Part shown: piece by piece, positions 1 through 7,703 of the stretch
How the letters are laid out: each line of letters begins with the position of its first letter
Position numbering within the stretch: the stretch's first letter is position 1
Source: Acidobacteriota bacterium
GTDB lineage: Bacteria; Acidobacteriota; UBA890; WLXD01
Direction of reading: 5' to 3'
Length of the DNA: 64,000 nt
Assembly (NCBI GenBank): GCA_963666215.2
Contig: CAXWPL010000004.1
Coordinates: 224,001-288,000, forward strand
Position numbers and translations under genes: made by a program
Notes under the pieces: model-generated
Databases searched by the model: none
What the model was told of the DNA's origin: nothing
Seen by the model: the letters and a program-made list of their open reading frames with translations, nothing else

Positions 1-2148
<2,148 letters not shown>

Positions 2149-2321
2149 GACTCGGCCGGCCGGACGCTCATCGAGCGCCAAGGCCTCGGCGAATGCAGGC
2201 CGACCGACGTCGACTTCCACCTGCTAGCCTCCGCGATGCCTTTGCCCGTTCGTTTGTGGCGCTCGATCGCGCACTGCACACTGCCGCCGAGCACTTGAAC
2301 GTCGACTGGAGAGCGAGACCC

Positions 2322-3887
2322 ATGTTCCGACGGCGCACCTCGACCACTCGCGCACTTGGCTGCTTCGCATTGCTATTCGTCGCTCTGGTGGCCTGTGACA
2401 CCGCCGCTCAAGACGCCCCGTATCCGCAGGCGGTTTTCGACAAGGCGATCGCCGACTTCGCTGCCGGCCGACTCCACGAAGCTGCTTCGGAGTTCGACCG
2501 TTTGGCCGAGCTCGTCCCCTCGGCGGCACCGCAACTGTGGCAACGCGGGATCGCTCTCTACTACGTGGGGCGCTACGACGACTGTCGCCTGCAGCTCGAG
2601 TCGCATCGCACGGTCAACCCGAACGACGCCGAGAACGCTGCCTGGCATTTCCTGTGTGTCGCCGCCGGGGAGTCCCTCGAGCAAGCGCAACAAGACCTCC
2701 TGCCGGTAGGGCCCGACAGGCGTTCGCCCATGGCCGAGATCTACGAGATGTTTCGCGGTGAGCTCACGCCCGACGACGTTCTGGCAGCTGCCGGGTCACA
2801 ACTGACGGCCCGCTTCTACGCCCACCTGTATATCGGGCTCTACCACCAGGCGCAGGAAAATCTCGCGGCCGCGACCGAGCACATCGCCGCCGCGGCGCAG
2901 CAGGAATTCGCTGCGAGCGGCGGCTACATGCATGTCGTGGCGCGTATCCATGAAGAGAGCCTGGTCTCAAACCAGGCTGCCGAATCGAGTGAGATGCCGA
3001 GCAGGTCTAACGAGGTGATGACACCGCGACCGGGAATCGACGCCACCAACGCCTTCTACTACTACGCCGATGTGGAAGCGGCGTGGCGGTTCTACACCGA
3101 GGTGCTGGGGCTTCAAACGGTCGCCGACTACGGCTTCGCCAAGATCCTCCGCGTGGCCTCGTCCTCGTATTTGACCCTGGTCGATGCGGAGCGTGGGATG
3201 CATTCGGCCGAGGAGCCCAAGAGCGTCACGCTAGCGCTCGTGACCGACGAGCTCGAGGGCTGGTACGACTATCTGATCGAGGCGGAAGTGCCGATGCGCG
3301 CGGCGTTCGAGCCCGCCAGCGGCCTTCCACATCAGGGGTTCGTCGCGATCGATCCCGAAGGCTACTTCCTGGAGTTCGAGCGCTTCGAGCCACATGCGGA
3401 GAACGAGCGCCTGTTGCCAGCGTTGGCGGCCCTGCGGCCGGTGTTCCCCGATCCAGATACCCAGACCGAGCGGCCCGCCAACCTGGGCATTCGGGCCACC
3501 GTGCTGTGGCTCTATTTCAACGATACTGCGCGAGCCAACCAGTTCTACACCGACCTTCTCGGACAGGCCCCGATCGTCGACCAGGGCTGGGCGTGGGCGT
3601 ATCAGGCGGCCGGGTCGGGTCTGATCGGCATCGTTGATGGATCCCGTGGCCTGCACCAGGCCACCAACGAAAAAGGCGTGACCGTGTCGCTGTTCGTCGA
3701 CGACGTCGAAGCCTGGTTCGCGGTGGCACCCGGCGTGCGTGGCTTCGAGCTGCGCACTCAGGAGATCACCGACGAGAGCGGCCGGGTGAGCGTTTTCGTG
3801 GGATACGACCCCGAGGGCACGTTTCTCGAGTGGGACACGTTTCTCGACGTCGAGGGCAACGAAAAGCTCCTCGAACTGCTGCGCTGA
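2322..3887 (+). CDS. Secreted/lipoprotein TPR domain fused to tandem VOC (glyoxalase-like) domains
   Basis: Signal with LVAC; TPR-like LWQRGIALYY...VNPNDAENAAWHFLC; two VOC repeats (YYADVEAAWRFYTEVLGL...DPEGYFLEFE and YFNDTARANQFYTDLLG...DPEGTFLEWD). Start chosen at ATG 2322. Confidence 0.7.
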   Translation: MFRRRTSTTRALGCFALLFVALVACDTAAQDAPYPQAVFDKAIADFAAGRLHEAASEFDRLAELVPSAAPQLWQRGIALYYVGRYDDCRLQLESHRTVNPNDAENAAWHFLCVAAGESLEQAQQDLLPVGPDRRSPMAEIYEMFRGELTPDDVLAAAGSQLTARFYAHLYIGLYHQAQENLAAATEHIAAAAQQEFAASGGYMHVVARIHEESLVSNQAAESSEMPSRSNEVMTPRPGIDATNAFYYYADVEAAWRFYTEVLGLQTVADYGFAKILRVASSSYLTLVDAERGMHSAEEPKSVTLALVTDELEGWYDYLIEAEVPMRAAFEPASGLPHQGFVAIDPEGYFLEFERFEPHAENERLLPALAALRPVFPDPDTQTERPANLGIRATVLWLYFNDTARANQFYTDLLGQAPIVDQGWAWAYQAAGSGLIGIVDGSRGLHQATNEKGVTVSLFVDDVEAWFAVAPGVRGFELRTQEITDESGRVSVFVGYDPEGTFLEWDTFLDVEGNEKLLELLR

Positions 3888-4024
3888 GACGACCCCGCGT
3901 AGCGGTCCAAGCGAGCCATCTGGCGTGACCGACGTCACTCGCACAACCTCGATCTCGTGTGTCCCACCGGCGTACGGCGATACACTCGGCGACGCTTCCA
4001 CGCATCTAACCCGAGGAGAACCCC

Positions 4025-4639
4025 ATGGCATCGAGAATCGAGCCCGTCACACGCGAGGGCACCACCGACGTCGACCTGCGGCAGCTACTCCAAGACGGCG
4101 CCGACGGCTGGTGGAAAGACACCGAGATGTTCGGCGTGATCGGCCGAGTGCCCGACCTGCTCAAGAGCATCGTGCCCGTGTTCGGCGCGTTCTTTGGCGG
4201 CGGCCGTGTTGACGCACACATCTTCGAGATGATGCGCGTCAAAACGGGGCAGATGAACGACTGCGCCTATTGAAGCACCGTACGCACCGCTGCCGTGCGC
4301 AGTGAAGTGGAGCCCCGCGAAGGAGCCATTCTCTCTGGCGACTACAGCTCGTTGTCGCGCCCCGAGGCGCTGGCCGTCGAGCTGGCCGAGCGCATGGGCA
4401 TGGACCCACACTCGGTAACCGACGACTTCTGGGAACAGCTCAAGAGCGAGTACACCGACGAACCGATCGTCGAACTGTCGTTCGCCTGTTCCATCTTCAA
4501 CTGGGGTAACAAGTTCAACATCACCATGCGCCTCGACACCGACGGCCGCGAGTACCACAAGGGAATGGAATACGCCGACGCCCCAACCTTCTGGCGTGAA
4601 GGACAAGGCGGCGCTGGAGCCAGGTCGGGAGACGCTTGA
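4025..4639 (+). CDS. AhpD/carboxymuconolactone decarboxylase-family peroxidase-like protein, probable selenoprotein (CxxU, TGA at 4271-4273)
   Basis: ORFs 4025-4273 and 4295-4639 are in the same frame. Read-through gives ...EMMRVKTGQMNDCAY-U-STVRT...LSRPEALAVELAERM...VTDDFWEQLKSEYTDEPIVEL, a complete CMD/AhpD fold. RBS GAGGAG upstream; the stop overlaps the next start (TTGA). Confidence 0.8.
4274..4304 (+). promoter_or_regulatory. Candidate bacterial SECIS hairpin
   Basis: CGCAC (4283-4287) pairs with GTGCG (4295-4299) around loop CGCTGCC; outer CAC/GTG pairing; directly 3' of the in-frame TGA. Confidence 0.45.
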
Positions 4640-5355
4640 TCGCTCGACTGGCAGCTCGCCGAATTGCGCTCACTGGCGCAGCCGTGCTCGTACTGAGCAC
4701 GGCCGCCGCGGCCCAACAAGGCCAAGAAGGTCAAGTCGACCCTTCTCTAGAGGAGGCGATCCGCTGGTACACCGGTGTCGGCGGCGAGGTCGACGATCGC
4801 AGAGCGCGCACGCTCTTGCTGGAAGCCGTTGCCGACGACGACCCGATCTCGCGAATGTGGCTGGCACGCTGTCACTCCCGCGGACGGATGTTCTTCGAGC
4901 ACGACAAGGCCCTCGCCGACTCGATTGCCGCCAGCGTGCTCGATCGGGTCCACGCGCTGGCGCTTCAAGACGTGGCCGAGGCGGCGTTCCTGATGGGCAC
5001 CGCCAACGACGAAGGGCTTGCCATGGAACCCGACCCGGCGCTCGCGGCGGCGTGGTTCCATCGCGCTGCGGATCAGGCGCACGTGCTATCGCAACACAAC
5101 CTCGGCAACGCCTACGCGGCGGGCCGAGGTCTCCCCCAAAGCGACGAGATGGCCATCTTCTGGTGGCGCAAAGCTGCCGAGCAGGGCGACGCGATTCCGC
5201 AACTCCGCCTCGGCGAGGCGTACGAAGAAGGCCGCGGGGTTGATCGCGATCTCGACATGGCTAAGCTCTGGTACGGTCGCTCCGCCGGGCGCGGCAATAG
5301 CACCGCCGTCGAGGCACTGAAGCGACTCGAGGCCGGCTCGGGACAACTCCTCTAA
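4636..5355 (+). CDS. Sel1-repeat protein, secreted
   Basis: Signal peptide; repeats such as WFHRAADQAHVLSQHNLGNAYAAGRG and WWRKAAEQGDAIPQLRLGEAYEEGRG. Confidence 0.9.
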   Translation: MIARLAARRIALTGAAVLVLSTAAAAQQGQEGQVDPSLEEAIRWYTGVGGEVDDRRARTLLLEAVADDDPISRMWLARCHSRGRMFFEHDKALADSIAASVLDRVHALALQDVAEAAFLMGTANDEGLAMEPDPALAAAWFHRAADQAHVLSQHNLGNAYAAGRGLPQSDEMAIFWWRKAAEQGDAIPQLRLGEAYEEGRGVDRDLDMAKLWYGRSAGRGNSTAVEALKRLEAGSGQLL

Positions 5356-5368
5356 TCAAGGACCGAAC

Positions 5369-6073
5369 TTGATCACCCTCTATCAGTTCGCACCGGGCTT
5401 CGACAAGCCGTTCAGTGTGAGCCCGTTCTGCGCCAAGCTCGAAGCGTATCTGCGGCTAGCCGGGCTCGAGTACAAAACCGTCAACCTGGGCGATCCCCGC
5501 AAGGCGCCGAAGGGCAAGCTCCCGTTCGTTGACATCGACGGAGACCTGATGGGCGACAGCACGGCCATTATCGCGACCTGCAAAGACAGGTTTGGCGATC
5601 CGCTCGACGGCGATCTCACCGCCGAACAGCACCATCGCGGCCTGCTCGTACAGCGTACGTGCGAAGAGCATCTGTACTGGTCGATGATTCAGTCTCGGTT
5701 TGTAGACGACCGCGGATGGCAGCTTCAGAAAGGAGTCGTGGGTGACACGCTGCCCGCGCCGCTGCGGCTCTTCGTGCCGGGGCTCGTTCGTCGCGGCATC
5801 GGCAAAGCGCTCCAGGCGCATGGGATCGGCCGCCACGGCCAAGACGAGATCTATAGCGCTGGTGTCGCCGACCTCGAGGCGTGCCAGGCACAGCTCGACG
5901 GCAAGGCGTTCCTTCTGGGTGACACGCCGACCAGTTACGACTGCTCGCTCTGGAGGCACGCAAGCTGCGCTCTCAGTACGAAATCGTCGAACGCTCTTAC
6001 CGACGGGGCCCGCACGCTCACCGAGCTCGGCGCCTATGTGGAACGCATGACAGATCGGCTGGGCTTTGCTTGA
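5369..6073 (+). CDS. Glutathione S-transferase family protein (metaxin/FAX-like)
   Basis: SVSPFCAKLEAYLRL, PKGKLPF, DSTAII, FLLGDTPTSYD. Confidence 0.88.
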   Translation: MITLYQFAPGFDKPFSVSPFCAKLEAYLRLAGLEYKTVNLGDPRKAPKGKLPFVDIDGDLMGDSTAIIATCKDRFGDPLDGDLTAEQHHRGLLVQRTCEEHLYWSMIQSRFVDDRGWQLQKGVVGDTLPAPLRLFVPGLVRRGIGKALQAHGIGRHGQDEIYSAGVADLEACQAQLDGKAFLLGDTPTSYDCSLWRHASCALSTKSSNALTDGARTLTELGAYVERMTDRLGFA

Positions 6074-6371
6074 GGCGTTTCAGCCAGTTCTTCAGGTTCT
6101 GCCAATTCTGCACGGCATGGACGCTGGCGCTGACGATCTCCACGGCCGGATGCTCGCCCACCGCGACGCCGGATCCACAGCTGAGCACGCGAGCCGAGCT
6201 TTCTGGCGCGAACGACGCTGAGTCGAGGCTGCAAAGCCTCGGGATCACGCTGCCGGAGCCACCGTCTTCGGCGAGCGCGGCAAGCACGCACGCGCCGCCG
6301 TGGGCATGGCCGTCCTGCCGCGCAATCAAGCGGTCGAGGTCGAGATGATCGTCGAGATCTCGAAAAACTGA
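6070..6371 (+). pseudogene. RidA/YjgF-family remnant with internal deletion
   Basis: N-terminal ESRLQSLGITLPEPP is joined out of frame at about 6264 to C-terminal VFGERGKHARAAVGMAVLPRNQAVEVEMIVEI*; the core of the domain is missing. Confidence 0.8.
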
Positions 6372-6422
6372 GCCGACACGACGGCTTCCAACGCCGATGG
6401 CCCCTTCACGAGGATCGTTGCC

Positions 6423-7703
6423 ATGACAACCCGCGCCCGCCTGCTCTCCTGCTCGATTTCCGTGGCGCTCTTGCTCGCTGGTCTGTCAGCGGCGCGAGCC
6501 CAACAGCCCGCTCATACACAACCGCACGAGAGCGACCTCTCGACCGACCGACTGTTGCGACTCAGCGACGCTCTCGGAGACTACGTGCAACGCGGTGAGC
6601 TGCCGGGTGCCGTGGCGCTCGTCGCCCGCCGCGGCGAAGTTGCGTACCTCGAGGCGTTCGGCAAGCGTGACTTGGAGGCGGGCGACCCGCTGCGCACCGA
6701 CTCCATCTTTCGTATTGCCTCCCAAACCAAGGCACTGGTGAGCGTGGCGGTGATGGCTCTCCAGGAGGAGGGACTCCTGCTAATCGGCGATCCGGTGGGT
6801 GACTACCTGCCGGAGTTCAGCCATACCACCGTGGCGGTGCCGAACGAGTCTGGGGGCTATGACGTTGCCGATGCCGACCGCCCGATCACCATTCGTGACC
6901 TGCTAACCCACACCGCCGGCGTCAGCTACGGCGACGGCCTGGCACGCGACCGCTGGGCCGAGGCCGGGATCCAAGGCTGGTACTTTGCCGATCGCGACGA
7001 GCCGATTCGCGCCACCATCGAACGACTGGCGGCGTTGCCGTTCGACGCTCAGCCAGGCGAGCAGTGGATCTACGGCTACTCCACCGACATCCTGGGGGCC
7101 CTCGTCGAGCAGGTCGGCGGAGTCCCCCTCGACGAGCTCCTGCGCACGCGGATCTTCGAGCCGTTGGGGATGAACGACACCCACTTCTACCTACCGCCCG
7201 ACAAGGTCGACCGCCTCGTCACCGTCTACTCGGCCACGGCTGATGGCAGCCTCGAGCGAGCGCCAGCGCCGGGTGGCATGGTGGGTCAGGGTGCCTATGT
7301 CGACGGCCCTCGCAAGAGTTTCTCAGGCGGCGCCGGGTTGCTCTCGACGGCCACCGACTACGCGAAGTTCTTGCAGATGCTGCTGAACGGCGGCGCGTTT
7401 GGGGGCCAACAGGTATTGACCCCGAAAAGCGTCGACCTGATGACCGTCAACCACCTCACCGATCAACCCTTCGCCAGTGGCGTCGGTTTCGGACTCGGCT
7501 TCTCGATAGTGGAAAGCCTCGGGTCGCGCGGAGTGCCCGGCTCGGTTGGCGAGTTCGGCTGGGGCGGCGCTTACCACTCCACCTACTGGGTGGACCCCGA
7601 GGAGCAGCTCGTCGTCGTGTATCTCACACAACTCATCCCCGCCATGGGGCTCGACGATCACGGCAAGCTGCGCGCGCTGGTCTATCAATCGATCATCAAC
7701 TAA
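6423..7703 (+). CDS. Serine hydrolase, beta-lactamase class C/AmpC-like family
   Basis: FRIASQTK (SxxK), [27 protein letters not shown]; signal peptide. Confidence 0.92.

Follow-up and report, generated by a model that had tools for sequence, protein, structure and literature searches.

The window analysed here, a 64,000-nt stretch of acidobacterial DNA, holds two short open reading frames that share one frame and are separated by a single TGA, and the question raised by this locus is whether that triplet closes a gene or is read as selenocysteine (Sec) within one longer redox protein. The original prediction had proposed a CxxU selenoprotein of about 204 residues, belonging to the AhpD/CMD class and provided with a SECIS element, and this core claim was supported by every test that was run.

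The internal TGA and the Sec machinery

On the forward strand, the coding sequence (4025..4639) runs in a single frame from ATG 4025 to TGA 4637-4639 and contains one internal TGA (4271-4273). Translation with Sec at this codon gave 204 residues with the motif Cys80-Ala-Tyr82-Sec83 (CxxU, 4262..4273, forward strand); the surrounding residues (GQMNDCAY*STVRTAAV) place the TGA at the second Cys of a CxxC motif, and full-length Cys homologues aligned with 46-59% identity. A Shine-Dalgarno sequence GAGGAG (4013..4018, forward strand) lies 6 nt upstream of ATG 4025 and has purine-rich counterparts in the relatives whose upstream sequences were compared. Inspection of the sequence upstream of GTG 4295..4297 (forward strand) revealed nothing resembling GAGGAG; this triplet sits inside the SECIS loop and acts for gene callers as the false start of a second gene. 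The ORF finder reported one frame of 82 aa (4025-4273) and another of 114 aa (GTG 4295-4639). The final TGA of the gene overlaps the TTG start (4636) of a Sel1-repeat gene. Frames split by a TGA in C-A-Y-TGA at the second Cys, a strong ribosome-binding site at the upstream half only and a stop overlapping the next start had all been described in the original prediction, and all were borne out. The expectation that standard annotation would split the gene also proved right, since orthologues are held in public databases as 82-aa proteins ending one codon before the UGA, together with second halves of about 115 aa; MGI9598392.1 and HET8854265.1 are examples, filed as hypothetical proteins. An annotation error is thus corrected, in which one redox enzyme was filed as two hypothetical fragments across many phyla.

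Profile searches of the genome (4.65 Mb, 91.7% complete) recovered selA (E 1.9e-155), selB (1.8e-101) and selD (7.4e-102), all above curated cut-offs, with selD itself carrying one in-frame TGA, and ARAGORN identified a 98-nt tRNA-Sec with anticodon UCA. All four genes for which a search had been proposed (selA, selB, selC and selD) are therefore present, and a lack of Sec machinery can be set aside. That the TGA is instead read as Trp, Gly or Cys through an altered genetic code is hardly credible. This explanation would draw on the fact that no tRNA-Trp was found by ARAGORN at its default threshold, but the genome is only 91.7% complete, ordinary genes here end in TGA (3887, 4639, 6073), TGG makes up 1.5% of the codons in long frames, the tRNA with anticodon UCA is the 98-nt tRNA-Sec, and the residue aligned with the TGA is Cys.

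Orthologues were collected from species-representative genomes, taking the best 80 of 86 loci; two did not cover the codon, leaving 78. In these, the codon was TGA in 67 and TGC in 11, and TAA or TAG were found in none of the 78. An independent scan of metagenomes (best 80 of 148 loci), biased towards Cys forms by its query, an alignment of Cys forms, gave TGA in 38 of 80 loci and TGC or TGT in the other 42, with no other codon. Records of TGA loci included Acidobacteriota, Actinomycetota, Alpha- and Gammaproteobacteria, Gemmatimonadota, Chloroflexota and Entotheonella, among others, and the closest TGA loci among the matches listed came from Thermoanaerobaculia and other Acidobacteriota (74-81% identity). 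The anticipated conservation of the TGA and its alignment with Cys were thus observed, and the TGA is not unique to this strain. The gene selA was detected in 64 of the 66 genomes with TGA loci, 63 times above the cut-off and once as a gene divided between two contigs, and in 3 of 11 genomes with Cys loci; these are mostly incomplete metagenome-assembled genomes related to each other, so that the counts represent a pattern and not a statistical test.

It is very improbable that the TGA is a true stop, whether through a nonsense mutation, a sequencing error or the existence of two small genes. Such an origin could be suspected from the many in-frame stops across coding-like frames of this genome, and the original caveat about nonsense mutations was fair, many coding-like frames carrying an in-frame TGA or TAG; yet the TGA studied here is common to many phyla, occurring in 67 loci and never replaced by TAA or TAG (best 80 of 86). 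Moreover, it tracks both selA and a covarying hairpin, single proteins containing Cys cover both halves in alignments, and no ribosome-binding site precedes the second half. From the comparison of these sequences, TGA 4271-4273 almost certainly encodes Sec, in one protein of 204 residues (probability about 0.97).

The SECIS hairpin

The hairpin had originally been placed directly after the TGA. This location did not hold: the long minimum-energy hairpin immediately 3' of the UGA is unconserved, being only 62% paired, below its own shuffles, and it was rejected. What stood was a shorter covarying stem 15 nt downstream. This bacterial SECIS element (4288..4304, forward strand) consists of a 6-bp stem (4288-4293 with 4299-4304) and a 5-nt loop, CGUGC, which begins 21 nt past the UGA (20-nt spacer). 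Over the 42 nt that follow the UGA, the three highest mutual-information values of any column pairs sat on one helix (+15..+20 with +26..+31), and RNAalifold selected the same six pairs. In 66 distinct TGA sequences, 97.7% of the stem cells were paired, with compensatory double changes at four of the six pairs (48 cells); none of 500 shuffles reached this pairing and the slid controls attained a maximum of 64.9%. Covariation, which had been named as a check on the hairpin, was thus detected; two count-type measures were not above shuffles (216 and 258 of 500). Pairing fell to only 40.9% in 11 Cys sequences. The same trend was found in metagenomes, where 28 additional TGA contexts, kept out of the definition of the stem, had 156 of 168 cells paired, vs. 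112 of 216 in 36 Cys contexts, the weak pair in metagenome contexts being +17/+29.

The G and U of the loop were invariant (68 of 68 rows) and form part of the GTG 4295 that is used as a false start. Changes in stem pairing were non-synonymous, residues 89 and 93 changing jointly (e.g., Thr with Gly, Val with Asp), which makes this SECIS a clear case of an RNA structure driving paired amino-acid changes. The bacterial SECIS model, as given in the accessible portion of PMC13188914, comprises a stem of 4-16 bp and a loop of 3-9 nt with G followed by G/U at the first two positions, located 16-37 nt from the UGA; the element at 4288-4304 conforms to it with 6 bp, the loop CGUGC (G second, then U) and a 20-nt spacer. 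Folded alone, five stretches of the region were no more stable than shuffles (z from -0.27 to +0.79), and single-sequence folding was for this reason rejected as evidence for a SECIS. Hairpins of a loose SECIS pattern followed 4,366 of the 42,776 TGA triplets tested (around 10%) in this GC-rich genome.

Fold, gene neighbourhood and proposed function

The predicted structure had an overall pLDDT of 70.8, with values below 50 for residues 165-204, so that the tail is unreliable. Foldseek returned 17 matches with E <= 0.001, headed by 2prr, PA0269, Mlr4105 and the AhpD of Deinococcus radiodurans. VIA-align gave a Z of 16.8 against 6k40, which is AhpD-like and comes from D. radiodurans (rmsd 3.0 over 178 residues), followed by 2prr (16.7), Bmp8 (15.6), PA0269 (14.7) and Mycobacterium tuberculosis AhpD (10.4). 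The model is all-helical and the CxxC/U motif opens the catalytic helix, as in the AhpD fold; matches of a Cys homologue in the Atlas were all CMD.

The proton relay of PA0269 is formed by Glu36, Cys48, Tyr50, Cys51 and His55, and its His is called invariant and essential in the accessible text of PMC3141380. The first four correspond here to Glu68 (4226..4228, forward strand; invariant), Cys80, Tyr82 and Sec/Cys83. The position of His55, four residues past the second Cys, is taken in the family alignments by Arg87 (4283..4285, forward strand). Of 141 family rows, 135 had Arg (67 from Sec forms, 68 from Cys forms), the remaining six being divergent and outside the pattern, and so had all 80 metagenome loci (best 80 of 148). 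Since Arg is shared by Sec and Cys rows, it is a family trait that predates Sec; without the relay His, the chemistry departs here from that of classical AhpD, and an AhpD-type peroxidase mechanism is not to be assumed. Arg at this position occurs in other CMD subfamilies too.

No NCBIfam or Pfam model reached its cut-off on this protein. TIGR01926 scored 38.2 bits against a cut-off of 81.8 (40.8-66.7 for five Cys homologues), and PF02627 scored 16.2 bits against a gathering threshold of 23, 21 of 22 aligned members matching it at E <= 1 (best 1e-6). NF053654 was the best NCBIfam match, nearly full length and with E 2.7e-13, at 50 bits vs. a cut-off of 310; NF041238 gave 14 bits vs. 175, and NF041047 did not match at E <= 1. 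The marks of the subfamily, which is without a model of its own, are CxxUxxxR, the covarying six-pair SECIS and a link to thioredoxin in relatives.

Three genes follow on the same strand. The Sel1-repeat gene (4636..5355) shares 4 nt with the stop of the AhpD-fold gene, a GST-family gene (5369..6073) starts after a 13-nt gap, and at 6070..6371 there is a RidA/YjgF-like relic whose N- and C-terminal pieces lie in different frames, with around 100 codons missing; an intact paralogue at G000:C5:1110308-1110709 aligns with the pieces over its residues 1-15 and 117-148. Sel1 and GST genes were found in none of 80 orthologous loci (best 80 of 86), RidA having been queried by short relic pieces only. 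The Sel1-GST-RidA operon that had been proposed thus retained the tight gene spacing observed here, but Sel1 and GST are unconserved context and the RidA-like gene is incomplete; it is a weak proposal, rejected as a conserved operon for Sel1 and GST in these 80 loci. Upstream, the segment 16-2148 (forward strand) is presumably the C-terminal part of a DnaE2-like error-prone polymerase, and the gene at 2094-3887 (forward strand) has a TPR-like region fused to two regions that resemble glyoxalases; no counterpart of the latter gene stood beside orthologues in 80 loci (best 80 of 86). A promoter scan of 3800-6500 gave no sigma-70 sites and three terminator-like sites, against 1.6 expected.

The neighbour of orthologues was a different one. 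A gene for a WCxPC thioredoxin lay directly downstream in 22 of 78 genome loci (14 Sec and 8 Cys; best 80 of 86), and in 14 of these 22 it overlapped the stop codon. Among genome loci with enough flanking sequence, it was found in 8 of 11 Cys forms vs. 14 of 60 Sec forms (best 80 of 86), and in 28 of 69 metagenome loci whose downstream flank reached 600 nt or more, made up of 25 of 35 Cys forms and 3 of 34 Sec forms (best 80 of 148). TrxB, above the TIGR01292 cut-off, was present in 10 of 11 Cys loci and in none of 67 Sec loci (best 80 of 86). All these thioredoxin and TrxB counts come from related and hence non-independent loci, and coupling to thioredoxin is seen chiefly among Cys forms. The haloarchaeon Halorientalis marina presented thioredoxin genes on both sides of its Cys form, and no thioredoxin gene was detected near the orthologue of Natribaculum luteum. 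In the genome studied, thioredoxin and TrxB are encoded on another contig than the AhpD-fold gene. Judging from the gene order in relatives, thioredoxin is the probable functional partner.

A regulator of the TetR family was found within 28 of 78 loci (best 80 of 86), and these neighbouring proteins have a TetR_C_13 domain. Six TetR-bearing loci have short palindromes ahead of the start codon, which are candidate operators; visual inspection showed none before the gene in the window. One database protein of 329 aa carries a TetR domain in frame with the N-terminal half of the enzyme and ends just before the Sec codon, the matching second half being a separate database protein from a contig of the same length; it is possibly a regulator-enzyme fusion or the result of a lost stop.

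Considered as a whole, the protein is probably a selenol reductase recycled by thioredoxin that removes a small oxidant, e.g., a peroxide or hypohalous acid. By analogy with established bacterial Sec decoding, SelB-GTP-Sec-tRNA would bind the hairpin's G-U loop, which lies 21 nt downstream of the UGA, and insert Sec83 at that codon. The selenolate of Sec83 would then attack the oxidant, Cys80 would resolve the oxidised Sec83 into a selenenylsulfide, and thioredoxin, TrxB and NADPH would reduce this bond back; Arg87, one helical turn past Sec83, may stabilise an anion in place of the His that serves AhpD as general base. Among proteins of the same fold, PA0269 and DR1765 are described as acting on H2O2 (PMC3141380, PMC8945050) and RclX as protecting against HOCl and HOSCN (PMC7950407). 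Given the many apparent nonsense breaks in the genome, the activity of this particular gene copy stays putative.

It is unlikely that the selenoprotein instead serves as an AhpD-type adaptor or a protein-repair reductase, whose electrons would go to a peroxiredoxin or to oxidised thiols of proteins rather than to a small oxidant. Adaptor is the function of M. tuberculosis AhpD according to PMC3141380 and PMC8945050, and several candidate genes of peroxiredoxin- or thioredoxin-like type in this genome bear an in-frame TGA. Nevertheless, the fold match to M. tuberculosis AhpD is more remote (Z 10.4), and peroxiredoxin families were absent from the 22 largest clusters of neighbours at the orthologous loci. 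A coupled thioredoxin would leave no need for an adaptor and points to a terminal reductase more than to an AhpC adaptor.

The change from His to Arg, pointing to a chemistry unlike that of AhpD, could also be accommodated by a Bmp8-like reductive dehalogenase or electrophile detoxifier, in which Sec83 would attack the halogen or electrophile, Arg87 would help to bind the anion and thioredoxin would recycle the enzyme. Bmp8, described as a CMD homologue that dehalogenates (PMC7918430), belongs to the close fold matches (Z 15.6, rmsd 3.1, 179 residues; profile E 3.4e-7), and the TetR_C_13 domain of neighbouring regulators would fit as well, one source labelling a fused copy NemR-like and NemR being described as a sensor of electrophiles and HOCl (PMC7464077). 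Four peroxidase-related structures score as high as Bmp8 or higher, however, identity to Bmp8 is 13-16%, and no halogenase or halogenated-product cluster recurred among the neighbours of orthologous loci (best 80 of 86), which leaves this function quite unlikely.

Distribution, other selenoproteins and comparison with known systems

A search of 40 related genomes, several of them incomplete, gave no orthologue but only distant paralogues with E of 1e-7 or worse; the gene is thus patchy and may have been acquired sideways. In quick trees, all Sec forms fell in one branch among Cys forms (SH-aLRT 96 with 148 rows and 84 with 57 rows), although this branch also took in three Cys genes of actinobacterial type. 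A topology that kept the Sec rows as a group of their own, excluding these three, was rejected at the borderline (p-AU 0.048). The root is uncertain, 31 of the 67 Sec rows were used, and the second tree left out eight long-branch rows and the outgroup; one gain of Sec from Cys followed by at least one reversal would be the simplest reading, and it is suggestive only. A bolder scheme, which we regard as distinctly doubtful, would have the Arg-type branch draw on thioredoxin as a selenoenzyme for the reduction of carbon-halogen bonds or of hypobromous acid, making it a bacterial, Bmp8-related counterpart of the deiodinases on the AhpD fold, the chemistry of Bmp8 resembling that of deiodinases; Sec would have arisen once from Cys, spread over many phyla and let most lineages drop dedicated Trx/TrxB genes.

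A genome-wide scan for a motif plus hairpin gave 327 candidates, mostly noise, which a coding filter reduced to a short list. The organism appears to be rich in Sec, with other likely selenoprotein genes predicted. Three further CxxU genes of the CMD/AhpD type lie at G000:C4:81811 (forward strand), C5:758601 (reverse strand) and C4:~1005870 (forward strand), so that the genome has four AhpD-fold selenoprotein candidates including that of the window; the residue four positions past the motif is His in two of the other three and Ser in one. Another 12 likely genes are located at G000 C1:286060, C2:219922, C3:150190, C4:70550, C4:658411 and C4:796655, and on contig C5 at 485618, 601878, 662803, 1250498, 1508934 and 1555519. 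One of these loci is SelD, identified by profile; from their motifs, we take the others to be glutaredoxin-like, DUF3179-like (two), formate dehydrogenase-like, SelW-like (two), thioredoxin/TlpA-like (two), peroxiredoxin-like (two) and PrdB/GrdB-like. Two of the 12 genes share the loop start CGUG.

Outside the window, at G000:C5:921004 (reverse strand), an in-frame TGA within the motif D-T-U-S-x-F-W-R occurs in the gene for a protein of about 950 aa that combines FG-GAP/ASPIC-UnbV regions with a redoxin domain at its C terminus. All 29 loci that could be parsed (of 30), from across the phylum, had this TGA, followed by a conserved short stem; the genome has two more copies of the gene, with one TGA each. 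This redoxin family is absent from the 119-family table in the accessible part of PMC13188914, no account of it was found in the literature searched, and it looks more novel than the AhpD-fold gene of the window. Across the genome, many coding-like frames contained in-frame TGA or TAG codons, several of them where Trp or Tyr is expected; these breaks are either pseudogenes or assembly errors.

The claim that AhpD-like/CMD proteins are an established class of bacterial selenoproteins agrees with the literature. A 2005 account of Sargasso Sea sequences (PMC1088965) reported AhpD-like and CMD-domain proteins with CxxU, as did the GOS survey (PMC2398784), and Table 1 of a 2026 review lists them as predicted and not experimentally verified (PMC13188914). 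The protein studied here resembles the COG2128/TIGR01926 AhpD-like and PF02627 CMD-like selenoproteins of such surveys in its fold, the Sec as second residue of CxxU, an in-frame SECIS and the existence of Cys homologues elsewhere; in contrast, it stays below the cut-offs of TIGR01926, PF02627 and NF041238 and carries Arg four positions past CxxU. It shares with the YciW-related (seleno)protein NF053654 the nature of a CMD-fold (seleno)protein, but as a distant relative and not as a member. The debrominase Bmp8 (6ohi, 6ohj), compared by fold and profile, is alike in its fold over some 179 residues and in a thiol-based chemistry; it differs in sequence (13-16% identity), in the bmp-like cluster, which has no equivalent near this gene, and in that no Sec is reported for it in the accessible sources.

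The class is therefore known, and there is little here to surprise a selenoprotein specialist; what is new is an Arg-type subfamily of AhpD-fold selenoproteins covered by no NCBIfam model. No description of this subfamily was found in the literature searched, which lay mostly outside subscription journals, and the survey sets or BSepDB (PMC13326102) may already include some of its members. Matched Sec and Cys versions exist, some of them in cultured strains (TGA in Haloechinothrix halophila; Cys in Shinella, Methylibium and Duganella) and, as the likely reductant is encoded next door in family members, the activity should be directly assayable. With PA0269/RclX, DR1765 (6k40) and M. tuberculosis AhpD, the protein has in common the two-helix catalytic motif (Z 14.6-16.8 for the first two), whereas it differs from these proteins by Arg87 in place of His55 and by Sec as the second Cys. 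Its likely reductant would be thioredoxin, in contrast with the lipoamide system that serves AhpD according to PMC8945050. A link of this kind has a precedent, since the same source describes a Deinococcus peraridilitoris plasmid on which ahpD-like genes have trx and trxR as neighbours.
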